A DNA stretch of 60,736 bases, filler included, from Basidiobolus ranarum (taxonomy: Eukaryota), in the NCBI GenBank assembly GCA_040143965.1. It is 14 parts of 14 records of this genome, joined end to end, with 100 filler letters (N's around TTAATTAATTAA, not from the genome) between each part and the next. Parts side by side here need not be neighbours in the genome. Positions count along the whole stretch, not along the records: positions 52,165 to 56,401 come from JASJQH010008933.1; 13 more parts are not named here. One strand, written 5' to 3'. Positions 8,382 through 59,427 of this stretch are shown here, in pieces. The position numbers and the translations under genes are program-made. The stretch's first letter is position 1. The number at the start of each line of letters is the position of its first letter. A model generated the notes under the pieces. It saw only the letters and a list, made by a program, of their open reading frames with translations. It ran no database searches and was not told where the DNA came from.

Positions 8382-8432
8382 TGTTAGATAATTAATCTTC
8401 ATTCAACATCTTAGTTAACTTTAGTTAAGATA
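8382..8432 (+). mobile_element. Start of a family-B copia LTR interrupting the family-A protease region
   Basis: TGTTAGATAATTAATCTTCATTCAACATCTTAGTTAAC matches the LTR starts at 20770 and 21181. Confidence 0.8.
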
Positions 8433-9010
8433 CCCCTAACAAAAATAAAATTGATTTGATCCGGATCGGATCCACCCTCCAAAATAGCAAAACCGTCAGA
8501 GAACTGTCACAATATTGCTGGCTTGCATTCTGCCAGGGTTTTTGATGGTGGGATGGCGGTTTCCTGACGGTATCTTAACGGTATTCATACATGTAAAAAT
8601 ATTGATCCTCAANNNNNNNNNNNNNNNNNNNNNNNNNNNNNNNNNNNNNNNNNNNNTTAATTAATTAANNNNNNNNNNNNNNNNNNNNNNNNNNNNNNNN
8701 NNNNNNNNNNNNATTCTCATAAATTTGTGAGTTGCATCCCAGCAATGGGTTATGATGTACCTCACAGTAAAGCCTGGTTGCTATATATATAAGCCATAAT
8801 ATCCAATGCATGTCAACACTACCTTTTCCTTCATGATCATTACCTCATCTCCAGAAATCCTAAGTACTTTTGGTTGATATTGAAAATATGCTTTGACTTT
8901 GAGTTCTATTTATAAGCACATTTTCTAACTTTTACATTAGATATGGAAAGTAAACGAGCTTGGGAGTCTACTAACACGAAGGTGGTGTGAATAAAGTAGT
9001 ATTACATAGT

Positions 9011-18486: not shown

Positions 18487-18558
18487 GCACTGGTAGCTAG
18501 TGGTTAGAGCACCTTGCTAGAGTGAAGGAGGTCCCAGGTTCAGAGCCTGGCCAGACCA
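18487..18558 (+). pseudogene. Degenerate tRNA-like sequence inside repeat DNA
   Basis: A-box-like TAGCTAGTGGTTAGAGC, stem CCTT/AAGG, variable loop AGGTC, T arm CCAGG-TTCAGAG-CCTGG, and acceptor GCACTGG/CCAGACC with 2 mismatches; 72 nt. Confidence 0.65.
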
Positions 18559-19849: not shown

Positions 19850-21666
19850 GATACCTTTACAAGCAATTACAGAAGCCATATCTTGCTATAAGCAATTATT
19901 GAGCTTTCTTCTGAATATTTAAGTTAACACCCCTATCCCACACCACAACATATGCTAAAACTCACTAGGGATATGGAACCAAAAACCTCTGATGATATTG
20001 CAATCATCAAACATATTCTGTACAGTAATGCAGTTGGAAGTCTCATATATTCAATAACTGGTTCTGTGATTGATATTGCTACAGCTTTAAGCATAGTGAG
20101 TAAATATATGGAAAATCCTGCAATAACCTTTGAAGATATTTGAGTCACAAAGTATATTCCTCCCTATAGTGCAGTGGGAAGTATCATATATAAAACAACT
20201 TGTACTAGGCCTTATATTGCTACAGCTGTAAGCATAGTAAGCAAATATACGGAAAATCCTGCAATGGAACATTGAATAGCTATGAAAGAGATAATATGCT
20301 ATCTGAGAGGAACAAGACATCATGTATTCAATTTAGTAAGTAGTACAAAGTGTCACTCAATTTGGAAGGATATGCTGTGGCAGACTTGGCTAACAATGTT
20401 GAAGACTGTAACTCCAGAACTGGTTATTTGTTTAAGCTAACATAGGGGCCAATAAGCTGGATTAGTAAGAAACAACAAACTGTTGCATTATTAATAACAG
20501 AAGCAGAATATATGGCAAGCTCTGTGGCTACTCAAGAAGCTATAGGGCTAAGGAGTCTTCACAAGGAACTAAGATATGATCAAGTTAATCCTACCCCAAT
20601 ATATCAAGATAATATTAGGTGTATTCAGATCACCAAAAATCCTGAGCAACTCTCAATGATGAAACAGATTGACATAGGACATCATTTTGTATAAGAGAAA
20701 GTTCTAGACAACAAAGTAACATCTATTTAATGTAATACTGAAAACATGCTTGCAGATATACTAGCAAAGTGTTGGATAATTAATCTTTATTCAACATCTT
20801 AGTTAACTTTAGTTATGATGCATATATCAGAAACAGAAAGCAATATATCTATAGCCCCTATATTCTGAATAGGAATATCTCTATATTTATATAACAAGTA
20901 TGTCTTATTACCCCTACTTATCTATTACATCTTAGTACACAAACTCCTGAATATCTCAAACAATTATTTTACTTTTCTACTCATTAAGTCATCATATACT
21001 CTTAAGAATAAAGTAACTGAAACACAATATCATAAGTTGCATCTAGTACACAAAGTCTACCCCCATTATGTCAAGATCCTCCAACACAAAGCCACTCAAA
21101 ACTTCAGGTTTTGAGAAGTTACAAGCAGGCATAGGCATTAGTGATTATAGGCACAATGCTGAATAAGAATTATGGGAAGATGTTGGATAATTAATCTTTA
21201 TTCAATATCTTTGTTAACTTTAGTTATGATACATATATTAGAAACAGATAGCAATGTATCATTAGCCCCTATATTCTAAATAGGAATATCACTATATCTA
21301 GATAACAAGTATGCCTTATTACCCCCACTTATCTATTGTATCTTATTACATAACTCCTGAATATCTCAAACAATGACTTACTTCTCTACTATCTAAGTCA
21401 CCATATTCTCTTACAAATAAAGTAACCAAAAACACTATCATAAGTTGCCTCTAATGGATTTGTTCCTGGTGATAGTGCCAGATTGTGCTGTATATATCAT
21501 ATTGGATAATGTGTTCTGTGATTTATGAGCCATAATTTGGCACCATCCAGCACCCTCTGGCTTGATCAATTTCAATCACTACTACTCTAATATATTGAGC
21601 AAAGGTCTGATAAATCCTGGCCCAATAGTACAGGGCTAATACACAAAGTCTATCCCCATTATGTCA
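19850..21666 (+). mobile_element. Decayed copia family-B 3' end: RT C-terminus (locally duplicated), RNase H, PPT, 3' LTR from 21181
   Basis: YSNAVGSLIY, ISWISKKQQTVAL, EAEYMA, IYQDN, KQIDIGHHF, MLADILAK; GGGAAGA followed by TGTTGGATAATTAATC. Confidence 0.88.
20770..21086 (+). mobile_element. Solo family-B LTR with perfect 5-bp TSD
   Basis: TGTTGG...CCAACA flanked by CAAAG at 20765-20769 and 21087-21091. Confidence 0.93.
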
Positions 21667-39170: not shown

Positions 39171-40036
39171 CTCCTAGCTGCCTTTTTGTATGATATTCTA
39201 ATACCCTGTAGTTTTAAGAATATTGGATATTTCGCATCGGTATTAGACTCCAATATATTTAGACAATAAATTACTTTCATTTTGTATACTTCGTATGATA
39301 TAGTAGATATAAATCTTATTCTAGTCTTTAGCATCAATTACTTAGTTGGTCAGTTCAATACTCGTGTTCTTTTTCAGATTGAAGATAAAATATTTTCCCA
39401 CTTTTTCGCAACTAATATAAACTTTTTTATCTGAGGATGTTATAAGATAACACCCAGAATGAAAAACTTATCAAACAAGTTGGTCAACAGGATATCCTAT
39501 AGCTAAAAACTAAGAGAACTGAATTCTGTGACTTGGCATGTATATAAACAAGTCCTAGTCAATTTTTACTCTAACAATAAGATACGCACTATGTTAATCT
39601 CTAGCTTCATACTTTATTCCAAGTGAATATTTATCGAGAATGAAGCCATGACATAATGTAAAATTTCTGAATTTATCACAAAGTTACATAGGGGAGTATA
39701 CCATTTGCATTTGTTGATTTGTTCTTATTCCTGCTGGCTATATCGTTCATTTACAAATGTACACTTTTGCTATTAAAATATGGAATTCATACTTCAGCAA
39801 TTTAATCAGGATTAGGAAATATTTCTGTGAGAACAATGCTGTTAATATCCTGAGCTTTGGTGTTCAATTTGCATTCGTCTGCATACGATGGTTTCTATAT
39901 AAAGTGAGATCTGATTGATTAGTTGAAGTATTAAACTCTCTTTCATCGGCTCTCTATCATAGGACTCGAATTGTTCGGCTCCACCGACCATAGCAACTCG
40001 CGTCAAAGCCCTCATCAAATATATTCCAACCTCAAA

Positions 40037-41251
40037 ATGTACCTATCTTCCATTCAGTTGTTATTTTTTCTTTCTGCTGCCTCATTGGGCTCAGGAGCTA
40101 GTGTTGCCGAGAGAGCTTACTCACCTGCTCACAGTGGTGACCACTATGGGTTAAGAAACGATTGGAACAATATAAATCGCTCTGAATGGAGAGAAGACGA
40201 TGAATATGACAGCCGTCGTGATAGCAATGATTACAGACGCGACAATAGCTATCCACATGATTACGATTTTGATCATGGTGACTATGAACCGGGTGACAAC
40301 AGACACGAAGATCATCACGATAATTACAGAAATGCTTCTCATCATGATGAAGAGGATTGGGATAATGATAATAATAATGAAGGCAGTAGCAAAGGTAGGG
40401 ACAACTACTATAATAACAATGTCCCATCTGGAGGGAATCTTAGTGTAGGGAACGGATCATCGAACTCTGGCCCACCAGCTAGTGGAGGTGGCGGGGTGCC
40501 TAGCAGTCAAGAAAATGTTGATCCAGCGGCTGGAAATGACTCTGGTGAAACGGCAGGAAGTAAGGAGACCATGAAACCAGGAAACTTACCAGCTGGAGAT
40601 GCGACGAATATTCATGAGGATGATGACTGCCATAGAAATCTTGTCGATGGGCGTCTAAACGTACTCGACATCAAAGCTAAAGTTTGCCTTGGCTTAGATT
40701 TGGCTGGTAATATCCTCAATAATGACAGAGATACATCCTCTCCGGGAACTCCCAGTGGCCTCACTGAAGGATCGCCAAGTGGTGTTCCTTCGGGTACATT
40801 CAATGGCTTACCTGGAGGTTCAGCAGGTGATGCTACCCCTAATGGTTCTAACATTCCTAAAACACCAGGAGCAGCTGCTGGAGATACTGACAGCTTGGCA
40901 AGTGGTACACCTGGAGCTCCTAGTCCCCCAGGCAACCTCAGTAACCCACTCAACCGAGGTGGAGAGTCATCCGACACACACTCTGGTCATTGCAAAGATA
41001 TTGCTGTCAAAGTTCGTCAATTGTTGGGAATCAATGCCGATGCTGTTGTGTGCCTTGATAGGCTGATTAGAGTTGATACTCACGATGACTCCAGCAGTAG
41101 TCTAGATGATCTTTTGCCTGGAGTGTTAACTGGTGGTAACCACCTAAAGCAGCGACGCACGAACTGTGAGGTAATTAAGGCGCATGCTGACATACTTGGA
41201 ATCAAAGTGGATGCTATCATCTGTTTACCTGAGATTGTGATAAGATTATAG
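40037..41251 (+). CDS. Secreted low-complexity protein (D/H/R/Y-rich, then G/S/P-rich) with three Cys-pair hydrophobic motifs
   Basis: ATG at 40037 with signal peptide MYLSSIQLLFFLSAASLGSGA; TATATAAA near 39896; 404 codons; paralogs on both sides. Confidence 0.88.
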   Translation: MYLSSIQLLFFLSAASLGSGASVAERAYSPAHSGDHYGLRNDWNNINRSEWREDDEYDSRRDSNDYRRDNSYPHDYDFDHGDYEPGDNRHEDHHDNYRNASHHDEEDWDNDNNNEGSSKGRDNYYNNNVPSGGNLSVGNGSSNSGPPASGGGGVPSSQENVDPAAGNDSGETAGSKETMKPGNLPAGDATNIHEDDDCHRNLVDGRLNVLDIKAKVCLGLDLAGNILNNDRDTSSPGTPSGLTEGSPSGVPSGTFNGLPGGSAGDATPNGSNIPKTPGAAAGDTDSLASGTPGAPSPPGNLSNPLNRGGESSDTHSGHCKDIAVKVRQLLGINADAVVCLDRLIRVDTHDDSSSSLDDLLPGVLTGGNHLKQRRTNCEVIKAHADILGIKVDAIICLPEIVIRL

Positions 41252-42387: not shown

Positions 42388-43384
42388 ATGCACCTTTCTT
42401 CCGTTCAATTATTGTTTATTCTCTCTGCAGCTTCCGTAATCTCAGGAGCTAGCGTTGCTGAGAGAGAATACTTCCCTGTCCACAATAGTGACCGCCATAG
42501 ACTAAGAAACGATTGGGACCACAGTAATCGCCCCGGATGGAGAGATGATGATGATGAATATGATAATCGTCACGATGATAGTGATTACAGGCGCATTAGT
42601 AACTATCGTCATGATAAAGATAATGACAACGAACCTGAAAACTATAGACACGTAAATCGCCACGATGAAAATAGAAGTGAATATGATCGTAATAAGAAGG
42701 ATTCGGATCGTGAACGTGATCATGACTACAGAAATGACACAAACCATGATAAAGATGATGAGTACAGAGATGAACACAGAAAGCCCAATACTGGGGGTGA
42801 CAGTGGCTCACCAAACAACCATGATAGTGACAATCCCTCTAGAGATGGTGACCCGAAAGATACGCCTGGAAAAAAGGGAGGTACACCAAGTGGAAAAGAA
42901 ATGGACACTCCAGACCATGGAGGTGACGTTCCTGACCGAATTCCTGGTGGTATAAATGAGAGCTTCCCAAAAGATATTCCCGGTCGTATACCTGGTGACC
43001 TACCAAATGGCTTCCCTGGTCGTATTCCGGGTGGCGTACCGGGTGACCCACCAAATGGCTTCCCTGGTCGCATTCCAGGTGGCCTACCTGGTGACTTACC
43101 AAAAGATTTCCCTGATCGTATACCTGGTGATTTACCAAATGGCTTCCCAGGCCGCATCCCAGGTGGCTTACCTGATGACTTACCAAAAGATTTCCCTAGT
43201 CGTATTCCAGGTGGCTTACCCGGTGATCTACCAAATGGCTTTCCTGGTCGCATCCCAGGTGGCCTACCCGGCAACTTACCAAAAGATTTCCCTGGTCGTA
43301 TTCCAGGTGGCCTTCCTGGTGACCTACCAAATGGCTTCCCTGGTCGCATCCCAGGTGGCCTACCTGGTGACTTACCAAAAGATT
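42388..43384 (+). CDS. Secreted paralog with D/H/R-rich region and Pro/Gly tandem repeat; 3'-truncated by the contig end
   Basis: MHLSSVQLLFILSAASVISGASVAERE...LRNDW matches the 40037 paralog; the frame stays open to the contig edge. Confidence 0.88.
42930..43384 (+). repeat. Coding minisatellite, 48-nt unit GRIPGGLPGDLP(NG/KD)FP with some 36-nt variants
   Basis: About ten units visible in the translation, with synonymous variation between units. Confidence 0.93.
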
Positions 43385-45139
43385 NNNNNNNNNNNNNNNN
43401 NNNNNNNNNNNNNNNNNNNNNNNNNNNNTTAATTAATTAANNNNNNNNNNNNNNNNNNNNNNNNNNNNNNNNNNNNNNNNNNNNACTGCAGAACATCACA
43501 ATACTAGCGATCATTACACAGAATACAGTGTATGAAGGGTAGTTGACGTTGCGAGAGTCATGTGGACTCGCAACCTGAGTAGAATCTTGTTTAATTTCAC
43601 CCATTTGTAGAAGCAAAGATTAAGCGTTGGAATTGTTTTTATTGTTCAAACTTTGAGAGCTTGGTCCTTATAAGCAAAAGGTTGAGGTGAATCATTTACC
43701 ATTGAATCCAGGCGCCTCATCAGCACCCTATCCAAAGAAGGATCTTTGTGACGGTGGTTATAAGCCTTTTCGTCATAAGCAATGGTCCTTCCTCTTACTC
43801 CATCTTTCTTACCCCCCTGCGTACGTGCAAATCATGGCATACCATATGCATACTATTTCAGCCAACTGTGTTAGTGGTGAACGACCAAAATACTCCAATA
43901 ATTAGCACTAGCCACATTGTTGGAGTGCCACTCAAATCCGCAAATCAAACTGATTCTATATTTGAGATGAATTGAGAAGAATCTATACTTTGTTGGAAAA
44001 TTAATTTCCTATATTCTGGTATCGATCATGTCTAGATCAATCAATCCTACTTACTGGAATAATGGAATCCGTTGTTTTTTCAAAGCCCGCATTTATCTAA
44101 ATCAAGTATTGTTTTAGACTAATGTTACTGAGTACTTGAGGAACGCTTTACATCCACAAGTCATTACTTTCCCCTAAGTGGAGAGTAACCACCAAGTAAC
44201 CCTAGCGATGGTGATAACGGTAGCGATAATCTTGAATACGAATACCTAACAGTTGCTTCAACCGATAATTTGTACAAATACGCTATTATTACGCTAGTGT
44301 TCCAGATACCCTAACATTAAGCCAAAATGCCTCAACACACTAATGTTCCAACTGGTATTGACAGTGATCAGTATATGGTGGCAAGTAAATGCTACGATTT
44401 CATTGTGATCCCATATATTGACTTATTGAATTAAATCTCGATAATTGATGGTTGATGCTAATCTGATACAGTTAATTAGTTAATCGATCAATTATGGAAA
44501 GATCGATAATACTTGGCACATGCTTCTGTAGGGTTAGTTTCCTTTCTCATATAAATGTAAATTCCTAGTACTTCCGAAACTTGTGAAAGAAATACGAAAT
44601 TTTGAAGAAGTAATATTCTAAAGAGTTTCATATAACTATGACCTCTTCTAGAACGCACTTTGATATTGAAATATTTCGATCAAACATCGTGTATCACGCT
44701 TATCATATTTAAAGTACTTAAAGTGTTTCTAATATATATTTTCGGAATCTTTTTTGCTAACAAACTTGGTCATATATTCCTGAACATATGCCTACATATT
44801 ATTGTAAAATCATCATTCATTTATTAAGCCTAATTTCGGTGTGGTAACTGATTCTGAACTCTACAAATATTGAGCAAATCTTATGCTAATCTACTTCTAG
44901 TTTCTTACCTTGATCTTATTAAAATATTTAAGTTTAATACACAATAAATGTTATACTCTTTTGCTTAGCATAAATGTCGAGTTTCTACTAAATTCTCTCT
45001 AAGTCATAATTTTGACATCTTTTTTGCCAAGTCGCAGTGACCATTAAGCTTATTTGATTACCCTAACTGTCTCCTCCACTTCCAACTTCTTTAGCACACT
45101 ATTGTTGCGAATATTAAAATAATTGAACATTTATAATTC

Positions 45140-46500
45140 AGTATTCAGTTGACATTAGTAATTTTGTCAAGATGTAAGCAAACTAACATGCCGAGTGTGT
45201 TAAGGAAGGTCCCAGAAGCATGTGTGCAAAGTTTGGGGCTACTATCACAAGTTTGAAAAATCTATATACCTGAGAACTTCTTAGTTGGTGTCAATATTCC
45301 AAGTAAATTCCTGATGAGAATAATGGGTAATATCTTGGTGAAATATAAGATAACTAAGTTTTAAGCTATATATTACTATGAAGGTGTTTAGGCACCACTA
45401 ACTTCAACAAAGCCAATCTATATAAATCATATGTTATGCACCAACATTTAAACTTGCAAAACATATTTCTTAATGCCTAACCTACATAATTCTTCAATTA
45501 TCTGAAATCCAAGCTCATTACATTATGTGACCAGCCCATCTTATCTCACACTTGGCAATCAATAATACTATTAAAAGTCAACTTCTTCTATCACTCTTCT
45601 ATGACATCTATTTGTCATCAGATTTCCAAGCTCATATGTTTATTTGCCTTTTTTTTGTTCCATATTCATCAAAGACAATATCCTTGGACTTGATTAACTT
45701 TGAAACAATGATATTGTGGTGCTTGAAAGCTTTGGATTGAGCGTAATAACCTAAAAGAGGCATTTCTTACTTTTTGGCTCTGTGTGGTCATAATTTTGAT
45801 GCAAGTAGTGAGTACAAATAGTCATAAGTGTTTTATATGAAGTTTAACTCCACACCATGCTTGATATGGTGTTGAGTTATGCAGACGTCTGCTAAAACCT
45901 CAATTTTCCATATATTTTGCTGTAGAAACATATTTTACCCACATATTATGACATGACTTATGCTTATTTATGCTACTTCTTGCCATTTCATGTATGGTCC
46001 TGTTTGCTATTGCAGTATTCTCACTTGGTTGAGACAAATACAGTGTAATGGTATGTTTCATAAATCCATACACTTTACAAAAGTACTTCACCCTTATCAG
46101 AGAAAATTTCTTGATTATAATTCCAGTTGCAATCCTCCCAGTTGTTTTAGAAATACTGAAGATAGAGAAAGCGTCATTCCTTTCTTTAAAGTAGCCCTAT
46201 GTATATCTTACATAATGGTCTATAGAAGTGCTCAAATATCTGTTTCTGCCAAAAGAGAAATAATGCCTAGGGCCACTTTAATCCTACAGAAATATATCCA
46301 GCTTTAGACCTAATTTAATTAGGCCAAAGCTGTTGAATGGTTAATTGGCTGTTCTTCTTTATATGTAACCTTTAAAAGCTATATGTTGGTTGGGAGATTA
46401 ATTTGGTTGTCAGGAATTTGGAAATGTTTGATCATTTTACTCAAATAATATGGTCATATCTCTTGATCATAATGCAATAGCTTTTTCCTTGAAGTAACTT
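45140..46500 (-). mobile_element. Decayed copia integrase region and family-A LTR (45409-45140), reverse strand
   Basis: Reverse complement of LTR A. Integrase-like AIANRTIHEMARS and STPYQAWCGVK on the minus strand. Confidence 0.75.
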
Positions 46501-47725: not shown

Positions 47726-47864
47726 NNNNNNNNNNNNNNNNNNNNNNNNNNNNNNNNNNNNNNNNNNNNTTAATTAATTAANNNNNNNNNNNNNNNNNNN
47801 NNNNNNNNNNNNNNNNNNNNNNNNNATTAGTATTAGTGTATATGACTATTTAGTTGAGGGAGAG

Positions 47865-48212
47865 TGTTGAAATTAGCATTGCCTAAACACCTATATAGTC
47901 ATATATAGCTTAGTACTTAGTTATCTTATGTTTCACTAAGACATTATCCATTATTCTCAATTGAAATTTACTTAGAATATATTTACCAACTTAGAAGTTC
48001 TCAGTTATATAGATTTTTCAGACTTGTGCTAGAAGCCCCAAACTTTGTACACATGTTTCTGGGACCTCCTTTAATACATTTTACCCATTAGTTTGCTTAC
48101 ATCATGACAAAACTATAAATGTCAACTGAATACTCAATAAATCAATAAGTGAAAACCACCAATTCCTCTAATTCTCTAAACCACTTCCAACAGGCTCCCA
48201 AATACTTCAACA
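47865..48212 (+). mobile_element. Complete family-A copia 3' LTR (348 bp) preceded by PPT
   Basis: GAGGGAGAG, then TGTTGAA...TTCAACA inverted termini with an internal AATAAA. More LTR fragments continue to about 48533. Confidence 0.93.
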
Positions 48213-51200
48213 ATATATATGTATGAGTAAGTTCCTCTTCAGGTGATATCTTAGTTCAATATGAAGTTACTAAATACCAAGCTATATATGACTATATAGG
48301 TGTTTAGGTTATGCTTACTTCATCAGAATAAAAGTACATTATCCAACAAGTATTGTGACCAACTTGAAAGTTCTCCAACTATATGGTTTTCTCAAACTTC
48401 TACTTTACATGTTAGTTTATCTACTTCATGACAAAAGAATAAATGTCAACTTGCACTCAAGAAATCAGTAATTGAAGACACCAATTCTTGTAGCTCACAA
48501 ATTACTTCCAACAACTCCCAAAATACTTCAACAAATGGCAATTTAGAGAATCATAGATATTTGCATCAAGTAAATTGTTTCATCATGGCTGCAATTCCAT
48601 TTTTTATAGTCATTGAGAAGTAAGTCTAGCCGGAAATTGATACATCCTAAACTACCTCTCAAGCTTCTTCATTGACTAAAATATTTGTGTTTTCAGCTTA
48701 GGTATCTTACTCTTAAATCTCCCAGATGTCTGCAAAAGTATAAAGGACTATTTAGAAGAATTTGATGTTGCTCTTCTTTATATCAACATAAAGAAATCAA
48801 CAATCATCTTGGCACAACTCTTTTTGTATTAATGGGAGTTTTAGAATCTCTGTGAGCTAAGAACAGGTTGGCAGCGATATATAAGCAATGAAGTATTGTT
48901 GGGATGTATGGATGGCAATTTCAAATGTAGAGTGATTAAGTACATTCTGCTCGAATATTACGCTACAATTTATATTCTTTCACATTGAATTTTGAAAATG
49001 ATTCTTCAGGTTTCTCATCCATCAGCACTTTGCCACAAATGATTTTCCAAATCCTGTATTTTCCATGACTGACTCCAATTATTTTTGATAGAATTGGAAA
49101 TTTGTTGAGTGACTATTAAGGATGTCCAGATGAAATAGGGGGAAACATGCTTTTGAGAGATATTGATTAACTAATCTTACATAAAATACACACTTAAAAG
49201 TAATACTAAGGACAAAGGATGTGTTTGGATTTAGATAATCAGCAAAAGTAAAATGAGCCATTTTGGGATTAATTTAGGCAACTATGAATCTCCAATCTCT
49301 ACTTGGCGTAAATCGGAACAGACATTGAGGTTACATGTGAATTATCCTAGAATTAGCCAAGTGATGTTTAACTAATATTGGTAACCGACTCAGATACGGA
49401 ATAGTTCGATGTAAACAGCAACACTTCCAACATTTTACTCCTTCCAAGATTCTTATAAGTCTAGATTTTCTCAGGAAATATTCACTTTCCTTTTTTGAAA
49501 ACAATGACAAGACTTTGCACTTGACTATTCCTTTCCGCAGTGCAAGGCTTCTGATTATATATACGTATTTCTCTTCGTCATAAACATATTTTGATGTATC
49601 TGTCTCGATTACCGTTGCTCTACTTTCTCGCTGGAAATCGAAGAGTAGATACATTTATTAAACATATTGTTTAATGAGGCATTTGTTGGATTCGAAATAT
49701 TGTAACTGAAACATGTCAGTAATTTGTCAAGTAGCACTGCGGAAATGTCATAGTTATGCATCAATGTGTGGGCATCTGTAATATTCATTGCTGTTTTTCT
49801 AAATGTCTCTACAGTGGAAATCAATCATCTGTTAGTGAATGTAGAGTAAATATCATACTTTTCCAAGCCTTCCCAATATCGTCAAGATCTTTCCGTCAGA
49901 GATTTTTCTTCATTTCTAACTCAATTACAAACACTTCATCTCAACATTATAAACCAACTCAACCATAGAGACCGCGGTTTTCGATAATCATCCATATACA
50001 TAACTGCAGATCATATACTTACAGAATTGGATAATTACCTATGATCTCGTTCTTTCAATCTAAGTAATCTTTCAGCCTTTATAAACCGATCTAGTTGTGC
50101 CAATGGTAAAACCTTACGTCATTGGAGTTACCTTATAAGCTCTTCGATGTTTACTTGATCAGATCCAGCACTATGGGCCAAAGCAGGAAAATCACCATTG
50201 GTATCTCATTTTTTGATGGAAAAATTCAGCTAGTAGATGCTTCATTGTTCTCATAGTTGTAATCGGAAATTTACTCTTAACTAGATATGTTGGCGGAACT
50301 AGTTTCTTGTGCACTATGTAGCTTCAAACTCAATTCGTTTGTAAGCAGATATGTGAAAGTATTTAGTGATATAAGTGAATTCGGTTCTTAACTTTATGTC
50401 TGCATATCCTTATATTATACACCCGTTGTGACAGTAATCTTCTAAATGACATCGTCCAATATTTCCCTAGCTCATATCTCCCAAAAAATACTCTCATTAC
50501 TAAGCTAGACTCTGGTATGGTAATCGTAAGGGTTCCATGCACACTAGAGCGATGAAAGTATGAAAGTTTTAACAAGTACTCCCCTGGTATAGAAAAGATA
50601 TTCTTTAGACAAAGGTTGGTACGAAGCTAAATGGTACAAGTTAACTGGTTATTATCCTATTAAACAACGTATATTGGACTTGGGGCCAAAGTAATGCTCA
50701 GTGACTCACCCGCAAAGCTCCACTTATAAAGTTTACAAAGCAATTGGTGTACTCTATAAGTATTGACGTTTTGAGGGATTTTCAGTTGAACTGAACTGCT
50801 TATTGATTCATAGTTTATCCAAGAACCGTCACACAATATCGCTTAGCCAAAAACTATAGCAGCTCTAAAGAATAGTTGTTAGAACAGGGCAAGTTATCCG
50901 AAGGAGAAACTATCGAATAGAGATGGTATTGAGCCAATCATTGCCTCATCCGTATGCACCTGGTGCCTAAACGTAGTAATCACACAGTGTGGAATTTGAA
51001 TTAGATTAGCTCGTATGACCAATTAACATGTGAAAATGCCATTTGACATTCAGTCTTGGGAAGAAAATTCACCCAGCTACCAAGGTTTACCACTATACAA
51101 AACTCATTAGATCGGAAGATTAAGGCCGGAATCTACTTTTCCATGAGCCCTTCGCCTACTGCGCAGTCTCGTTCGTTTCTTTGTGGAGTGGTACAGGCCT

Positions 51201-51867
51201 TGGATGGCCTCTACCGCTCTTCGGTGACATGAATTGGCTACTTCTTACCCATACACAGATCTATTTGAAATCGAGACATGCTACATGAATAAGGACTTGG
51301 AATGTTGCTAGAAGCCATAAGGTTACATCCGACTTGCCCATTGAAATCAGCAAGTACATGAACTAACTAATTTCATGTATGAATGCAAGAATTCTTGATA
51401 CCCAAACATTGGGAGAACTCGGAAATCACGTGGATAGTTGCATCGATGTCGATCGAGACTGCGCTTTATGATTGAACCTGAAGTGAGTTCCTTTTAGGGA
51501 TGTCAGCCGTCCAAATTTAGAAGGGGTTAAGTTCACTCTGGTATTAGTTAAGAGGGGCCACTTTCTTTACTTCCAAAAATTGCAATTTTCGCTCGATTTT
51601 ACCAATCCTTATTTCCTAATTCCCCCGAAAAAGAAAATTCAATGAAAAAAAGAGAATTTCCATGTTCAATGTTTTTATGGCTCAATCATCACATTAGGTA
51701 ATTGTCTAGTTTTGAGCGGTGTTTGTGGGGTTGCTAAATTAACCTCAGCACACAAGTGTGGATATTTAAAGGGCAGCATTGCAAAGAATACTTCATCTGA
51801 TAATTTCAAGAAACATACTTCTTCTCTTCTACACCGCTTTTCCTTTCGATCTCACACCATTTCTAAA

Positions 51868-52064
51868 ATGTATGATCTTATGAGCCTACCGCATGAGATT
51901 CTTGATCACATTTGTACCCATCTATCAGCTCTCGACTTGGTCCACTTAGCTGGTACCAATCACTACTTTTACAGTCTAGTTTTAAACAGCGACTGCTGGA
52001 GTCATGTAGATTTTTCTTGTGTACCAAAACTGAAAAAAGGAACCGTGGAGGTCTGCGCTTCTCC
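51868..52064 (+). CDS. F-box protein, N-terminal part
   Basis: MYDLMSLPHEILDHICTHLSALDLVHLAGTNHYFYSLV...CWSHVDF fits the F-box consensus; cut by the contig end. Confidence 0.85.
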
Positions 52065-52515
52065 NNNNNNNNNNNNNNNNNNNNNNNNNNNNNNNNNNNN
52101 NNNNNNNNTTAATTAATTAANNNNNNNNNNNNNNNNNNNNNNNNNNNNNNNNNNNNNNNNNNNNAACTAAGAGATATTAGTACTACTGCAAACTAAGAGA
52201 TATTAGTACTACTGCAGCAACATCGAGTCTGAAATATATATTAGCTTAATTAATTCAGGATTAGAAGGTAGGATTAGAATGTATCTTAGTGAAATTCCTG
52301 TTCTCAGCATTTTCCAGGTCAAGTACGCTACCAATATCCATTGTCTCTTCGATTTTCACTGGTAGTACTATTGATGCTATATAATCCTATGTAAACTATA
52401 CTATTCTGAGGATTAGTTGTTATTAATCCGTACTGTAATTACGAATGATAGAAGAAAACTATCGTGAATTCGAAATCCATCGAAATATGGTTAATTCTTT
52501 CTTGGAAAAATATTT

Positions 52516-52528
52516 CAATCCCACAATT
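52516..52528 (+). promoter_or_regulatory. Candidate snRNA-type PSE/USE element CAATCCCACAATT
   Basis: At -68 to -56 from the inferred RNA start, conserved in both copies, and marks the 5' limit of the duplication. Confidence 0.5.
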
Positions 52529-52583
52529 AAATATCATCTCATTGTTTGGTCAAAAGCGAGTGGCGATTCTTACAAGAAAATCA

Positions 52584-52727
52584 ATTCTCAGTAGGAAACT
52601 TTTACCTGTTATTTTATAATAACAATTAGTTTTCAAATGATGTAATCTGGGCGACATTACTCAATTGTGATTAAAACCCCCCAGGTGAGCTCGGATTGCA
52701 ACCCGGGTAGTTCACCGCTTACTGATT
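52584..52727 (+). ncRNA. SNORD118: U8-like (SNORD118) box C/D snoRNA, copy 1
   Basis: Colinear U8 motifs TCAG..GGA, TTACCTGTT, ATTAG, box C ATGATGT (52637-52643), GTGATTAA, TTGCAAC, box D CTGA (52722-52725), plus four U8-like stems. Compared with human U8 from memory; ends inferred. Confidence 0.8.
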
Positions 52728-53051
52728 TGAGAAATCACCATTTTATCAAATCTTTTAATCTCAATATACATATATTACAAAACGTAGTGAAAAGTTAGAT
52801 TTCCTGTATATAGTCGTACTCAACATGCTATAACATTAGCGTAGAGTTGGGGCAAAAGGGATATGTAATCATTTCTGGTTATAATAAAAATCTCATTACT
52901 GATGAAACGAATTATTTACCCTTCACTTATCATATCACACTTTATACTATAAATACGTGAGAGATATGTGGGACTACATCAAATAGAAAAGCAGTCAAAA
53001 CATCAGCGCTTCAACTTTGTATTCAAGTGCTGGTTATACAATATGTCAAAA

Positions 53052-53133
53052 TGATGAGAGTGGGGTTCGAACCCACGCCTCCTGGGAGACTGCGACCTGA
53101 ACGCAGCGCCTTAGACCACTCGGCCATCTCACC
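53052..53133 (-). tRNA. tRNA-Leu(CAG)
   Basis: GGTGAGA/TCTCATC acceptor, CTGCG-TTCAGGT-CGCAG anticodon arm, long variable arm, GGTTCGAACC, TTTT terminator; 82 nt. Confidence 0.97.
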
Positions 53134-53768
53134 TTATACAAATCTTGGGATATAACCCATTTGACGGAGTAAATATTTTGGTATACTTCATTTAATGCAA
53201 AACATGACATGAGCATACTCTATAATGAGAACATGTTTAAGATTTATCCCTAAATGTCTACGATCTTAATATTATTAATTAATTGTACTATGGAATCCTC
53301 ATATGGATGCCATACATAGTTCAAACAGTTACCATAAAGGTATACATATATTTCCTTGTTCTCTTCAAATGCTTGTATAAAAGAAAAACACGCGAAGTTG
53401 AGGATTACGGTATTCGTTGGACACCAGCTTTAAAACAAGTATTCAATAGAATAATGGAACCCAAGATCCTAACTTAATCAGTAACATCTAGGCATTTTAA
53501 GCCAGTATTTTATTACACACTCTAGCGGTTGATGATAGTCCTGGAGACTTAATAACGATAAACTTTTGCAAGTATCTCTATCTTCAAATTTCTTTGCCTA
53601 TACTAATATTTGGATACAATTTAACATTGAATCTCAAATAAACATCTATGTAGAAATATTAGAGATTATTGAGTAATTATCACTTTATTATTCTAATTGA
53701 TTCTCTAGGGTTGCGTGCGTGCAGTGAGCTAGTCTCAGTATTAAGCTACGTGATCTAGTGCTTCTATT

Positions 53769-54251
53769 TTAGCTACGTTTGCTGTTTCTAATTAACCTTA
53801 GAGATCTTCTTCTCAGAGTCATGGGTGTTGCAAACTCTTGCGTCCAATAACTCCCACGAGCATCGTACGCGATTCCAATCTGCGTAAATATAGGGTTTAG
53901 GATATTGCTACGGTGTTCAGGTGAGTTCATCCAAGCATTCATTACTGATGCTTCATCACCAAATCCCGCTGCTACATTTTCTCCAACATTGCTCCACCCA
54001 TAACCAGTTTCACTGATTCGCTGTCCTAGTGATCTATTGGGTTCATCGTGGGTCATCCTCTGAACAGCGACTTGGTAGAGAGTATGTCTTTCTGCGGCGA
54101 CGGTGAGTCTTTGTTCTATAGTCAACGCTGGAATGCCGATGTTTTGACGCTGTTGATTCACTAAAGCTAGGAGAGTATTGGCGTCAAAAGAAAGCGCAAC
54201 CTTCGCGAAAATGAACAAGGTTAAGATTAGGTGAAAAGTTGAGAATTTCAT
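53769..54251 (-). CDS. Secreted CAP/SCP-domain protein (YkwD-like, Cys-free)
   Basis: ATG at 54251 with signal peptide; LVNQQR, MTH, GENVAAG, WMNSPEHRSNILNP, YWTQEF. Confidence 0.93.
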   Translation of the reverse strand: MKFSTFHLILTLFIFAKVALSFDANTLLALVNQQRQNIGIPALTIEQRLTVAAERHTLYQVAVQRMTHDEPNRSLGQRISETGYGWSNVGENVAAGFGDEASVMNAWMNSPEHRSNILNPIFTQIGIAYDARGSYWTQEFATPMTLRRRSLRLIRNSKRS

Positions 54252-55412
54252 GGCAGAAGAATTTAATGACAATCTATGGAACATATTGGACATTTATATA
54301 CTTGTTGACATCTTCATCGTTAAGGAGGGAGAGGGAATATATGAGAATTATTTGATGAATACAAGTGCACCATCTAATCAAAACTGATTGCTATGTTGAA
54401 TGCTCACTCCATCTAATGAGAACTGATTGCTATGTTGAGTATTCCAATCAATCAACCCGAACCACCAACACTGACCAATCCGTTACAATAATGTGGCTGT
54501 AAAGCCAATGCGAAAGAGTAGTCTTTAAGTAAAGCCTTTCGTTACTTTATCTATAACCCCACAACACACCGCATTTTTAAGTTCCATGCTCTTTGTATCA
54601 CCATTCAACAGAACAAATATAGAAATACATAGAATGGGAACATTGCCCACAGCCAATTGTTTTGATTTAGTTATTTCCATTTGTAGCTAATTGCTATAAA
54701 TGATAATAGTAAAATTTGTTTGGAGGAATAAACCCTAATCCTAAGGATGAAGGAATTTACAACGTGGCTTTAGTAGCACACTCGGCATACACCATAAGAG
54801 GAGTTTCATTGATAGTACTGAATAAGGTCTAGTATTTATAATTTGCAGAGATTGGCCAATCATTCAAGCTCCATAAATAGCGCCAAGAATCAACAAAATT
54901 TCCACGCTGGTTTTGCTAAATGGAATTGGCTGTACTAATCTTTATACCAATTTAGATTACAAAAGATATGAATTTTTTTTATCGAACTATTGTAGGGAAA
55001 TTAATATTGGCTTGGAGATTTTCAATAGGCAACTCTGAAATCTGAATAGAATCTCTACTCTAGTTCCATTTTAAATACCTACCTAGAGGTACAAATCCAT
55101 CCTTAACTACTATGTCACTTCAACATTTATGCACCTTATACTTTTTCAAGACTTTATCGCAGTATGGGTGGCAAAGAATGTCCTTTAGGACACCTAGCCA
55201 TATCCTATTGAGCCAAAGAAAAAAATACTAAAGTTGTAGTTTAGCAGAATATCTTATAGCATGATCAATGATTATTAGTTAAATTCGTTAATAGTTGAAC
55301 CAAGTCGTATATGTTAACATTACTCCATCCACTCTGCCTAATTCTTAGGGATTGATGTACTCTGCTCTATCAAGAAACAAATTGGTGATGGAATTATTTG
55401 ATTAATGCTCTG

Positions 55413-55425
55413 CAATCCCACAATT
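55413..55425 (+). promoter_or_regulatory. Candidate PSE/USE element, copy 2
   Basis: Same CAATCCCACAATT at the same distance from the RNA. Confidence 0.5.
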
Positions 55426-55480
55426 GAACATTATCTCATTGTTTGGTCAAAAGCGAGTGGCGATTCTTACAAGAAAATCA

Positions 55481-55624
55481 ATTCTCAGTAGGAAACTTTT
55501 ACCTGTTATTTTATAATAACAATTAGTTTTCAAATGATGTAATCTGGGCGACATTACTCAATTGTGATTAAAACCCCCCAGGTGAGCTCGGATTGCAACC
55601 CGGGTAGTTCACCGCTTACTGACT
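55481..55624 (+). ncRNA. SNORD118: U8-like (SNORD118) box C/D snoRNA, copy 2
   Basis: Identical to copy 1 through box D (box C 55534-55540, box D 55619-55622). Confidence 0.8.
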
Positions 55625-55945
55625 TGAGAAATCTCTTTTTATGAAATCTTTCAATCTCAATGTACGTATATTACAAAATGTAGTGAAAATCTAGTTTTCC
55701 TGTATGTAGTTGGACTTAACATGCTATATTATCCTGGAGTTAGAGTAAAAGGGATATGCAGTCATTTCTGGTTGTAGTAAAAACATCTTCACTGATAAAA
55801 GGAATTATCCACCTTTCACTTTTCATGTCACACTTTGCTATAAATACGTGAGAGATATGTAGAGCTACATGAAATAGAAAAGCAGCCAAAACATCAGGCC
55901 TTCAACTTTGTATTTGTATTCACATGCTGGTCGTACATGTCAAAA

Positions 55946-56027
55946 TGATGAGAGTGGGGTTCGAACCCACGCCTCCTGAGAGACTGCGACCTGAACGCAG
56001 CGCCTTAGACCACTCGGCCATCTCACC
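55946..56027 (-). tRNA. tRNA-Leu(CAG)
   Basis: Same cloverleaf as 53052-53133 with one substitution in the variable arm. Confidence 0.97.
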
Positions 56028-56501
56028 GTATACAAATCTTGGGTTATAATTGTTATTACCAAAAATAGGATAACAATAAAAATCCAAATTAGCTTGTACC
56101 AAGTGATTTTAAGGTTGAATTATTACAAAGCATTGATTAGACTTCCACCAGAATTAATATTGTGAATATTGTTCGAACTTTACTGTAAATCTAGCAATAA
56201 TGGCAGTCTGTGGCTGATGTGCTTATCCTATGTTACATGTTGATTTATAATTTCTGCTGTTGCAAGAATTAGGATAACAATGAAAATGCAAATTATGCAC
56301 TAAAAGGTATGGTTCTGAGAACACACATTCTCAGAACTTAAATATCCTATATATATATCAACGTATTAACATATGAATAAATTGAAGTTCTTAAGCTATT
56401 TNNNNNNNNNNNNNNNNNNNNNNNNNNNNNNNNNNNNNNNNNNNNTTAATTAATTAANNNNNNNNNNNNNNNNNNNNNNNNNNNNNNNNNNNNNNNNNNN
56501 N

Positions 56502-57487
56502 AGCATGTTTCTTAAACTTTTCCAAGAACTCATCGTAAATACTTTCTTGAACATAAACTCTGGAACCTGCCGTACAGCATTGCCCATGATTGAAGAAAAT
56601 GCCGCTACTAGCCCATTGGACAGCCTTGTCAATATTGGCATCTGCAAATATGATATTGGGACTTTTGCCCCCCAATTCCAAAGAAATCTTTTTTAAATTA
56701 CTATCGGCAGCTGCATTCATAATTGACCGTCCAGTGACGGTAGAGCGGTAAATGCAATTTTATGAACATCTTTGTGAGAAACCAGAGCTGCTCCAGCTAT
56801 TTTTCCATAACCGTTGATAACATTGACGACTCCTGGTGGGAACCCAGCTTCTTTAGTTAAGCTAGCAATATACAATCCCGATAAGGGGGTTTGCTCCGCA
56901 AGCTTCACTATCACAGTGTTTCCGGCGGCAAGGGCTGGACCAAGTTTCCAAGATTGCATTAAAATTGGGAAATTCCAAGGAATTATACAACCCACAACAC
57001 CAATGGGTTCATGGCGAGTATAACTGAATTGGTCAAGGTTATCGGTTTGAATAACTTTCCCGTGAATTTTGTCCGCCCAACCCGCATAGTAACGATAGCA
57101 CTCAACTGCTAGACGTAAGTCACCATTCTTAGCATCAGACACAGTTTTACCATTGTCAAGAGACTCCAGGGCAGCTAATTCATCAGCATTTTGTTCAATT
57201 AAATCAGCCAGTTTGTAAAGCAGGCGACCACGCTGAGAGCCGGTAGTTTTAGACCAAGAACCGTAATAAGCGTTGGTAGCAGCTTTGACAGCAATGTCAA
57301 TATCCTTCTCGTCGGCTTCAGCTACCTTACAAATTACCTTTTCGGTGACGGGATTGATAGTATCGAAAGTTTTACCACTCTGGGAAGGAACAAATTCACC
57401 GTTGATGAATAGGTTCGTGTTCACATGAATGGATTTCCCATTTGGTAATTCAAGGGATTGAGTTATATCATTTTTACTAACGCCCAT
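56502..57487 (-). CDS. Aldehyde dehydrogenase (ALDH1/2-like), 5' part, with a 1-nt frameshift near 56746
   Basis: [39 protein letters not shown] then (second frame) STVTGR...[10 protein letters not shown]...[11 protein letters not shown]. Confidence 0.93.
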
Positions 57488-57603
57488 GATTTTAGTTCTT
57501 TAAATTGGTGATAATGAATATGATGTGGGCCAAGTCATTCATTTATACGAAGGTTGTGGCAACATTGCCTCTTCCTTCTCCAATTAAAAGAACAAAAGAT
57601 CAG

Positions 57604-57623
57604 TGACTCCTGGATATGACTCA
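57604..57623. promoter_or_regulatory. Two AP-1/Gcn4-type sites (TGACTC, TGACTCA) upstream of the ALDH TATA-like element
   Basis: Motif match only, about 120-135 nt upstream of the ALDH ATG. Confidence 0.3.
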
Positions 57624-58778
57624 GTCTTTCCATTGAACATAATCACCGGTGATTCCTTGATCTTGGTGAAACCTTTGAGACAGTAGCCTCAGTATTCCAG
57701 GTAATAAGCCATATTCTGTAGTATAGAATGGTATTTCTCACCTATGCCATCACCTCAAGTGGATGCTAGGAGATCAGGCTAAAATTGATGACGCTAAGAG
57801 AGGAATGAAATCTCTTGAAACAGCAGCTTAGAGACTGCTGATAATCACTAATGGATATGTGTATACATTGAGCTTGCGGTTGCGCAATTTCTACAGTGGG
57901 TGAGTTTTTATTTGCTCAAGATGGACTGATTCACCAAATAGCACGAGTTCCATATCAGTATAGCTACGAATAGATATACAGGTCGAAATATTCCCACAGA
58001 GCTGAGTCCTTAGTATGAATAACAATCCTAACACCAACCCCCTAACCATTCGGGAATTCACTCGAATATATTCAAAAAATACATTTCTGCTCAAATCTCG
58101 AATCTTGAACCCTCCTCTAGTTCTGGGTAAACTATATGAAAATCATCTTCAAAACCTGATAAAAACTCATTTCTCAACAGATATAACATCCAGGAATTGG
58201 AACAGTTACCCCCAAGTATAGTCTGCCACTAGAGGTGCCATGCGGCGGAGTAAATTAAGGCTGTATGTCTTAATCGTTATTAAGCCTTCGCATCAAGCCG
58301 CTAAGCCCTCGTCAGCTATCCTAACGGGCAACTTAGGTTTACTACCAAACTTAGGACATATATTTTCTTGCAACAGGATACTGCATGAGATTGAGACCTG
58401 GCGCATTTTGATTGGAATTTTAGTTTCATCTTACCCAAGTGATAAGCATGGGTTCACATCTCATTCTACCTTAATTGAGCATACTACTGTTTAGTCATCA
58501 TGCGAATCGTAATGCTTGACTATAATGCAGTTCGAGAATTCGGATTTCGTGACGTTACATCTACTGGATCTAGAGGCTATGAGGTTGAAGACTCAGGGTC
58601 AGATGAGAACATATTCCCCCATACATCCTTTGAAACAGTGATATAAATAAATAATTTGTCTGTCCCAGTTGCATTGTTAACAAGTAGTAAAGATAAATTG
58701 CTTCCAAAGTGATTTCATTGAACTGTGCGTTTATGCTTGATATGCGCTATTTATACATTCAGTCATAGATATTGCAAT

Positions 58779-59427
58779 TCAGAGCTCATAACCCAACAGA
58801 AGATATTCAGGTTCTTGATTGTATACAGAAGGACTTACCACCTCAAATCCTATGTACATAAATGTACGTAATAAAGATGCGGTATCGGATTTCTTTTTTG
58901 GCATACATATTACTAGCTTCATACATTTCAGTATTGTGTCGGCTAATTCCAAAATTGACATTAACGATTCACGAAATTCACTATCTGCCCAGCCAGCTGA
59001 ATTCGGCGGACTTAAAAATAAGGTCTTATCTGTGGTAAACCCAAGCCACTCATTAGTATTAACTTCCATTCCACGGGAAGAAATGGATAATACTGCATCG
59101 ATTTCATGAAATGAACCTTCGGGTATGCGAAGCAACTTGTGAGCAAAGTCTGTTGATGCTACGAGTCCACCAGTGGCTCTTGAGGCCAGTCCGATCTCTG
59201 TTCTCCTTCCGTCACCATCAGACAAAGTAATGGAAGGAACGTCAAAAACACCACGAAGCTCGATTACCCAGGCTATAATAATAGTTTTCCTTGTGACATG
59301 TGGCAGTGCGAAGAATGGAACAGACGGCGAGGCAAGATGATCCATTTTGAGCAACAAAATCCTTAGGAGTTATGTTGAGTTTTTGCATTGGTATAAGCAT
59401 TTCTGAGTTGTCATTAAGATAAGCCAT
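58779..59427 (-). CDS. OAZ1: Ornithine decarboxylase antizyme, +1 programmed frameshift (ORF1 59427-59245 joined to ORF2 59243-58779; ~215 aa)
   Basis: ORF1 ends TGG-TGT-TTT-TGA-C. The +1 frame continues DVP... into the antizyme domain FRESLMSILELADTILKCMKLVICMPK...LLRTFMYIGFEVV. Confidence 0.95.

Follow-up and report, generated by a model that had tools for sequence, protein, structure and literature searches.

The genome of the fungus Basidiobolus ranarum (GenBank assembly GCA_040143965.1) carries two copies of a short block, identical over 190 nucleotides (nt), which we judge from sequence to be, probably, a pair of functional and concertedly evolving small nucleolar RNA (snoRNA) genes that are U8-like in design and action. 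This reading is based on the order of the motifs, on the near-identity of the 5' domain to a Tetrahymena candidate and to animal U8s, and on predicted complementarity to the large-subunit (LSU) ribosomal RNA (rRNA) of other fungi. The block was studied in a window of 60,736 nt, the whole stretch of DNA that was analysed, which joins 14 parts of 14 records of the assembly; both copies are located in the part from JASJQH010008933.1 (positions 52,165 to 56,401), and all coordinates count along the window. Copy 1 of the block occupies 52536-52725 and copy 2 55433-55622. Each is part of a duplicated unit that also includes a spacer and a gene for a leucine transfer RNA, tRNA-Leu(CAG).

Pairwise alignment of the two units (52516-53155 and 55413-56049), which are 89.3% identical overall, yielded a very uneven identity profile when read segment by segment. 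Within the block, 190 of 190 columns are identical, exactly at the coordinates that a first-pass annotation of this DNA had given. The first difference, T at 52726 and C at 55623, directly follows the block and was also present as described there. The next ten bases (52727-52736) are again identical to copy 2, so that the whole stretch amounts to 201 columns with one difference. The spacer beyond (52737-53051 in copy 1) was expected to hold substitutions and indels, and it has 47 mismatches and 15 gap columns in 321 columns, equivalent to 80.7% identity. The tRNA-Leu(CAG) genes differ, as anticipated, at a single one of their 82 positions (53085 G versus 55979 A on the plus strand); read from the sequence, this is a C to U change in the stem of the variable arm, where the pair is kept as G-U. 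At the edges of the unit, 3 of 20 columns differ on the left (52516-52535) and 2 of 22 on the right.

The limits of the conserved segments fit those of genes. Perfect identity begins some 48 nt before the RNA is predicted to start, the 190-nt run stops exactly at box D, and near-perfect identity extends to ten nt past box D; the only other near-perfect segment in the unit is the tRNA gene with short flanks. We used the diverged spacer as an internal, near-neutral yardstick. At its difference rate of 0.193, the probability of finding no difference in 190 nt is 2e-18, and that of at most one difference in the 82 nt of tRNA-Leu is 5e-7. Random placement of the 69 differing columns among 646 did not produce a clean run of 190 or more in any of 100,000 trials. 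The pair also stands out among the repeats of the window: it is 97% identical over 228 nt, as is the adjoining tRNA pair (97%; family D16), and these two are the most conserved among the 20 direct-repeat families listed of 25, the other repeat copies ranging from 60 to 93%. The block pair is therefore conspicuous without any appeal to U8, and the earlier claim of evidence for function that does not depend on this resemblance is supported.

As the identity profile is uneven and shaped like genes rather than like a random conversion tract, the proposal that purifying selection and/or gene conversion act on the RNA and its proximal promoter is supported and is the natural reading. Gene conversion probably contributes beside selection, since the absence of any change in 190 nt, with loops and promoter spacers included, exceeds the usual effect of selection alone. 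Conversion alone is no proof of function. Taken from the sequence, the block is very likely a functional small-RNA gene, because its limits are gene-like, it shows features of a box C/D RNA and folds stably, and within the unit only a tRNA gene compares with it. The pattern expected of concerted evolution or purifying selection, with a functional part at 100% over 190 nt next to a spacer at 80.7%, resembles that of multi-copy small-RNA families (tRNA, small nuclear RNA, U8), in which the coding part and the proximal promoter are near-identical and the spacers diverge; exactly this is displayed by the tRNA-Leu pair beside the block. Unlike in such families, there are only two copies, the unit measures only 640 base pairs (bp), and an unrelated CAP-domain gene lies in between. 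The duplication represents a built-in natural experiment that marks which 200 nt are constrained, and the T/C difference past box D (52726/55623) tells the two precursors apart.

The predicted RNA, of about 143 nt, combines a 5' antisense domain, an internal box C, three hairpins and a 3'-terminal box D (Table 1). Its unconstrained fold reaches -37.2 kcal/mol and is more stable than that of shuffled sequences (z -3.08). When pairing is forbidden in the 5' domain and the boxes, the fold shows three hairpins in U8 order, and the loop of hairpin 3 matches the U8 loop in the Rfam alignment. The conserved 3' flank UUUGAGAAAUC can pair with UUUUCAAA just before box C, at -5.9 kcal/mol in copy 1 and -4.9 kcal/mol in copy 2, where C at 55623 breaks the innermost pair; it can instead pair with the 5' end of the RNA, at -6.8 and -7.0 kcal/mol, respectively. 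Upstream of the 48 identical nt, only about 20 more nt belong to the duplication, and for this reason the putative promoter must be compact. No TATA box was read from the sequence near -30. Both copies have T runs after the RNA (TTTT and TTTTT), which is why transcription may be carried out by RNA polymerase III.

Searches with the Rfam models pointed to U8 (RF00096). At gathering thresholds only the two tRNAs were found. Below these, the U8 model aligned end to end (1-135 of 135) with 24.6 bits for copy 1 and 23.0 bits for copy 2 (55482-55623), and U8 was the best match to the block among 4227 Rfam families, with an expect value (E) of 0.0079 when the 191-nt block and of 0.021 when 501 nt were searched. 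The only other full-length Rfam match on the block was the Tetrahymena RNA TtnuCD26 (16.9 bits, E 3). UCAGU, UUACCUGUU, AUGAUG, UGAUUAA, UUGCAAC and CUGAU are common to the block and U8 and appear in U8 order. As in U8, box C has an internal position some 55 nt into the RNA, and box D is located at the 3' end. UGAUUAA, which contains the GAUU core of the LSm site between boxes C and D, fits the U8 consensus at seven of seven positions; its hairpin context is weak, as three of six consensus pairs are non-standard and the motif is partly paired in the constrained fold. Altogether, 17 of the 24 U8 consensus pairs are standard (hairpin 1, 6/9; hairpin 2, 3/6; hairpin 3, 8/9), and the identity of the two copies leaves no covariation signal.

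The motif constellation was then compared with large sequence collections, in which two metagenomic loci, L049 and L104, served as positive controls; their true U8s score 96.6 and 95.2 bits with RF00096. The pattern TTACCTGT-gap-ANATGATG-gap-TGATTAA occurs at 119 or more metagenome loci, and among the 119 matches listed, L049 and L104 alone carry TCAG upstream together with GCAAC and CTGA downstream. The same pattern was found 61 times in 596 Gb of prokaryotic assemblies, and none of these 61 matches has even two of the three extras. A second pattern of 20 bases, TCAGTAGG-N6-TTACCT-N15-45-ATGATG, which the block shares with the TtnuCD26 consensus, was found five times in the 596 Gb, each time inside a long bacterial contig. 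These counts suggest that the chance expectation of the constellation per fungal genome is well below one, even though the patterns are post hoc. The control loci themselves look animal-type: L049 holds a complete U8 at 170-302 and, about 840 nt downstream, the start of a second copy (1011-1073, 46.1 bits) that is cut by the contig end, and L104 holds one U8 at 723-855. U8 genes are tandemly repeated in the organism of L049, too.

The 5' domain of the RNA was further compared with fungal LSU rRNA. LSU 5' ends were obtained as eukaryotic ribosomal DNA (rDNA) contaminants of prokaryotic assemblies, fetched with the LR0R primer, and nine fungal-type variants were used. The 32-nt domain (52584-52615) is predicted to form a compact duplex with the LSU 5' segment UCAGGUAGG..UACCCGCUGA (extract positions 13-33), in which UCAGU.GG pairs with CC.GCUGA and CUUUUACCUG with CAGGUAGGAG. 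Duplex energies range from -17.5 to -23.0 kcal/mol across the nine heterologous LSU variants. Composition-matched shuffles reached the observed energy in 0, 1, 3, 3, 5, 5, 16, 18 and 37 of 2000 cases for the nine LSUs. The true U8 of L049 is predicted to bind this LSU segment as well, via the aligned motifs, at -25.0 to -30.6 kcal/mol with fungal-type LSUs. The U8 5' end has been held to pair with the 5' end of the LSU rRNA (PMC8993069, PMC3273799, PMC2943600); PARIS cross-linking data point instead to the 3' end of 28S rRNA (PMC8993069). As to the LSU sequences themselves, about 48 of the 67 listed LR0R matches (L120-L186) have a eukaryote-type LSU 5' end just upstream, mostly fungal-looking and in many cases on short contigs; they represent eukaryotic rDNA contamination of bacterial genomes and metagenome-assembled genomes.

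Several observations weigh against assigning the RNA to U8. Both Rfam scores fall below the gathering score of 41, and in a search of the whole window the two copies obtain E values of 2.5 and 5.8, which is noise level, beside five matches of unrelated families with similar E. Box C deviates from the consensus at its final position, with U for A; box C variants of this kind do occur in real snoRNAs. In the alignment to the Rfam model, seven of the 24 pairs of the U8 consensus are not standard base pairs. A covariance model, R1, built with the Rfam structure from the two metagenomic U8s, which are 99% alike (effective sequence number 0.94, hence low power), gave 32 matches in the window at E up to 10 and none at either copy; on the plus strand, it scores no better than -0.5 bits at the locus. 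This miss speaks against a simple homology in sequence to that lineage of U8s. Since the candidate was known when the motif patterns were devised, the numbers obtained with them overstate significance. No fungal relative appeared among the metagenome matches listed or the prokaryotic pattern matches.

The rRNA pairing has to be read with similar care. The LSU sequences come from other fungi, not from the source Basidiobolus. The raw duplex energy is not exceptional, as it is equalled by 76 of 29,475 32-nt segments of the window with an L144-type LSU and by 743 of 29,475 with an L138-type LSU. Most of these segments are rich in G+C; among the 6179 whose G+C content is no higher than that of the candidate, 0 and 12, respectively, do as well. 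The LSU site is the best one on four of nine rDNA loci, and a loopy 18S site is equal or better on the other five; the true U8 used as control is best at the LSU site on only five of nine, which implies that this best-site scan has little resolving power. Taken together, the sub-threshold Rfam score, the R1 miss, the atypical box C and the failure to find a homologue among the matches weaken the U8 reading, and membership in the U8 family is plausible but, as the curated Rfam threshold is not reached, unproven.

The same observations bear on the possibility that the block encodes another functional box C/D snoRNA, for example a methylation guide of about 95 nt starting before box C, with a coincidental likeness to U8. 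The identical 100 nt upstream would then be promoter and leader. Apart from the sub-threshold U8 score and the R1 miss, this idea draws on a possible 8-bp external stem of UUUUCAAA (52630-52637) with UUUGAGAA (52726-33), which brackets boxes C and D at -5.9 kcal/mol and is placed as in many guide snoRNA precursors, and on a weak alignment of the archaeal family sR33, with UGAUUAA as C' box (13.4 bits, E 1.3). However, no fungal or other guide snoRNA family of Rfam matched at E up to 10, noise aside, and the RNA is strongly structured between boxes C and D and has no CUGA there that could serve as D' box, unlike guide regions. Canonical guides have box C only a few nt into the RNA, a terminal stem, D' and C' boxes, and an antisense element of 10-21 nt that stops one nt short of box D or D'. 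Moreover, the 5' part displays the motifs of U8 and TtnuCD26 at the right spacing as well as the LSU complementarity, and a perfectly conserved promoter of 100 nt would be unusual. We therefore consider a guide snoRNA unlikely.

It is very unlikely that the identity merely reflects recombination history, that is, a recent and functionless ectopic gene-conversion tract of some 200 bp. Such a tract would have a plausible length and would explain why even predicted loops and upstream spacers are identical, and the window is rich in dispersed repeats. Yet its edges fit a gene, with about 48 nt upstream of the RNA at one end and box D plus 10 nt at the other; it contains both boxes as well as the U8 motifs in their order, its fold is more stable than those of shuffles (z -3.08), and the unit has been trimmed to just two small-RNA genes. 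A little less credible still is a regulatory or chromatin element acting at the DNA level and tied to the adjacent tRNA gene or to the neighbouring protein genes. The block does always travel with tRNA-Leu in the 640-bp unit and includes an A-box-like string, AAGCGAGTGG, at 52553-52562, but no B box was found, the C/D boxes, the hairpins and the strand-specific motif order are RNA-like features, and the neighbouring protein genes differ between the copies. An assembly artefact, in which the block is the merged consensus of less similar copies or one copy is spurious, is highly improbable: graph assemblers can merge near-identical repeats, but each copy is bounded on either side by unique, diverged sequence and has different neighbour genes, and merging could raise about 98% identity to 100% without creating the contrast with a spacer at 80%.

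Five further candidates were discarded. On the minus strand, box-like strings occur in the wrong order, and the only Rfam match there (icaR 5' UTR) is noise; the block has no open reading frame (ORF) that could encode a peptide; a short snoRNA driven by the TATA-like TATAATAA at 52615-52622 would start its transcription after box C; a tRNA-snoRNA dicistron is incompatible with two converging genes; and a mobile element is at odds with the lack of a third copy and of flanking repeats.

Under the U8-like reading, we infer transcription, RNA ends, assembly into a small nucleolar ribonucleoprotein, the rRNA target in the source Basidiobolus and a role in processing as follows. The two blocks would be paralogous, independently transcribed snoRNA genes of U8 design, each about 143 nt long; a compact promoter, some 50-70 nt in length, would direct transcription of a precursor that extends slightly beyond the 3' end of the RNA. 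A kink-turn formed by box C (AUGAUGU) and box D (CUGA) would recruit the box C/D core proteins. The single-stranded 5' domain of the RNA (UCAGUAGG...CUUUUACCUG) could then pair with nt ~13-33 of the LSU rRNA inside the pre-rRNA. Paired in this way, the RNA would, like vertebrate U8, chaperone folding and promote processing during 5.8S/LSU maturation and would not guide methylation. Purifying selection and ectopic gene conversion would keep the copies identical while the spacer to the tRNA gene drifts.

In its layout the Basidiobolus RNA is closest to U8 (SNORD118, RF00096), which has a length of about 140 nt and the same order of parts, including the hairpin with a UGCAAC loop and the 3'-terminal box D. 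U8 itself is found in the nucleolus as a stable RNA that bears a trimethylguanosine cap, binds fibrillarin and is needed for 5.8S/LSU processing. The LSm site of U8 contains a 'highly conserved GAUU motif', and human pre-U8 likewise has a short 3' flank that pairs with the 5' end (10.1101/2019.12.12.874594). U8 of L049 has a 5' domain complementary to the LSU rRNA 5' end, as predicted for the Basidiobolus RNA with LSUs of other fungi, and U8 is also multi-copy, as illustrated by the second, cut copy of L049. In contrast to true U8s, which reach about 96 bits, the Basidiobolus RNA scores 24.6 bits, its hairpins 1 and 2 are A+U-rich and shifted in register, its box C reads AUGAUGU, a convergent tRNA gene accompanies each copy, and the host belongs to the fungi.

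U8 has been called 'unique to vertebrates', with no homologue in yeast (PMC8993069), and a 2023 catalogue of ribosome biogenesis factors gives it as 'only in metazoans' (PMC10068337). TtnuCD26 (RF02302) of Tetrahymena is a published candidate for the first U8 outside animals (PMC3273799). Its 5' end is nearly the same as that of the Basidiobolus RNA, with UCAGUAGG, 6 nt and UUACCU followed by box C; it also ends in CUGAU, and its 5' end is described as complementary to the 26S 5' end (PMC3273799). Unlike a member of that family, the Basidiobolus RNA, with 16.9 bits (E 3), falls far short of the gathering score of 90. TtnuCD26 is described as 98 nt long, without one of the U8 hairpins and without the LSm motif (PMC3273799), whereas the Basidiobolus RNA has about 143 nt and contains UGAUUAA. 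CeR-2 of Caenorhabditis elegans, a proposed U8 orthologue, is reported to be of box C/D type, with a 5' end complementary to that of 26S rRNA and an LSm-like motif in a hairpin loop, and to be involved in cleavage of the internal transcribed spacer 2 (PMC2943600); in this published description it resembles the Basidiobolus RNA. Yeast snR190 and U3 are box C/D snoRNAs that also pair with pre-rRNA rather than guide methylation, but their layout and motifs differ from those of the Basidiobolus RNA, and neither family gave an Rfam match to the block at E up to 10. Trypanosomes yielded no U8 candidate (PMC3273796). The U8 decapping enzyme NUDT16 is reported to lack fungal orthologues (PMC12210691), which lends no support to a fungal U8 and is not decisive. 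We found no report of a fungal U8 among the papers that our literature searches listed; 'U8' alone is unsearchable, and supplementary files may list matches. The words SNORD118, Basidiobolus and Zoopagomycota are absent from a paper on the fungal snoRNAome.

To our knowledge, no box C/D snoRNA other than U8 causes a human Mendelian disease when mutated. For the wider proposition that a true U8 orthologue survives in early-diverging fungi such as Basidiobolus and has been lost or changed beyond recognition in the Dikarya, including yeast, so that U8 is not an animal invention, we see the balance as even. If correct, the pair would represent the first U8 from a fungus, and U8 would date back to the common ancestor of animals and fungi or earlier, with a loss in the very yeasts on which most knowledge of ribosome assembly rests. 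Together with the Tetrahymena candidate, it would suggest that early eukaryotes already had a chaperone of U8 type for the 5' end of the LSU. Moreover, it would provide a fungal system for asking what U8 does, and it would fit other reports that early-diverging fungi keep ancestral machinery.

Table 1 Features of the two duplicated units (window coordinates)
Feature	Copy 1	Copy 2	Strand	Basis
Duplicated unit: promoter, U8-like RNA, spacer, convergent tRNA-Leu	52516-53155	55413-56049	.	Pairwise alignment of the copies, 89.3%
Upstream region, putative proximal promoter	52536-52583	55433-55480	+	48/48 columns identical
Predicted U8-like box C/D RNA, about 143 nt	52584-52727	55481-55624	+	Rfam RF00096 (at 52585-52726 in copy 1); copies equal except C at 55623
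5' antisense domain: UCAGUAGG, 3 nt, CUUUUACCUG	52588-52608	55485-55505	+	Predicted LSU rRNA duplex
UCAGUAGG	52588-95		+	Shared with U8 in Rfam alignment
UUACCUGUU	52602-10		+	Shared with U8 in Rfam alignment
Hairpin 1 (GUUAUU / AAUAAC)	52608-52623	55505-55520	+	Unconstrained and constrained folds; at the place of the first U8 hairpin
Box C (AUGAUGU)	52637-52643	55534-55540	+	Aligned to U8 box C
UGAUUAA at the U8 LSm-site position	52668-52674	55565-55571	+	7/7 match to Rfam U8 consensus
Hairpin 3, loop AUUGCAAC	52684-52716	55581-55613	+	8/9 consensus pairs standard; constrained fold
Box D (CUGA)	52722-52725	55619-55622	+	Aligned to U8 box D
Conserved 3' flank (C/UUUGAGAAAUC), putative precursor 3' extension	52726-52736	55623-55633	+	10/11 identical
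Diverged spacer	52737-53051	55634-55945	.	80.7% identity with indels
tRNA-Leu(CAG)	53052-53133	55946-56027	-	ARAGORN; Rfam tRNA 55.6 bits

The duplication spans only about 640 bp: roughly 70 nt of upstream sequence, the RNA itself, the spacer and the tRNA. No similarity outside this unit was detected by blastn of 50500-54300 against 54301-58500, and no third copy was found in the window; the duplicated piece is trimmed to two convergent small-RNA genes with short flanks. An F-box gene and an aldehyde dehydrogenase gene border the unit, the two copies are separated by a gene for a secreted CAP-domain protein (53769-54251, minus strand), and the neighbouring protein genes differ for each copy. 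Within the spacer, a sub-block of 86 nt (52938-53023 and 55829-55914) is 87% identical between the copies; its core of 23 perfectly conserved nt, CTATAAATACGTGAGAGATATGT, includes a TATA-like string, and the sub-block may represent another functional element, located between the genes for the RNA and the tRNA. The 3' trailer of tRNA-Leu is identical in both copies (53036-53051 and 55930-55945) and contains the expected T run (AAAA on the plus strand). On the plus strand, this trailer reads AAUGAUGAGAG, a perfect box C string that is probably a coincidence.

A pyruvate kinase encoded at 163-1680 is 91% identical to its counterpart in Basidiobolus meristosporus and 82% and 80% identical to two B. 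ranarum proteins; the next relatives are found in Mortierellomycota and other zygomycete-grade fungi, at about 70%. These identities point to a Basidiobolus-like, early-diverging fungus as the host. The window contains 26 runs of N, each exactly 44 nt long, which come in pairs every ~4350 nt (for example 52065-52108, 52121-52164 and 56402-56445) and are periodic masks, not assembly gaps. One such pair cuts the F-box ORF just upstream of copy 1.

Elsewhere in the window, dispersed repeats of 66-90% identity occur at 6500-8500, 20770-21630, 26316-26459, 29528-29865, 34151-34701, 45322-45398 and 47827-48455; presumably, these are decayed mobile elements, and they show the ordinary divergence of repeats in the window. 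A 72-nt tRNA-Ser(AGA) called by ARAGORN at 18487-18558 (plus strand) had no Rfam tRNA match even at E up to 10 and is probably a false call or a pseudogene, as it has no long variable arm. Two neighbouring ORFs on the plus strand, 39971-41251 and 42388-43440, look like paralogous secreted repetitive proteins: both have signal-peptide-like starts, acidic and His/Asp/Arg-rich parts and Pro/Gly-rich repeats, and the latter contains 11 overlapping repeat copies at 12/36/48-nt spacing (family D1). Finally, an ORF on the minus strand at 58779-59357 contains a domain of ornithine decarboxylase antizyme (Pfam PF02100), a protein whose expression usually depends on a +1 ribosomal frameshift.

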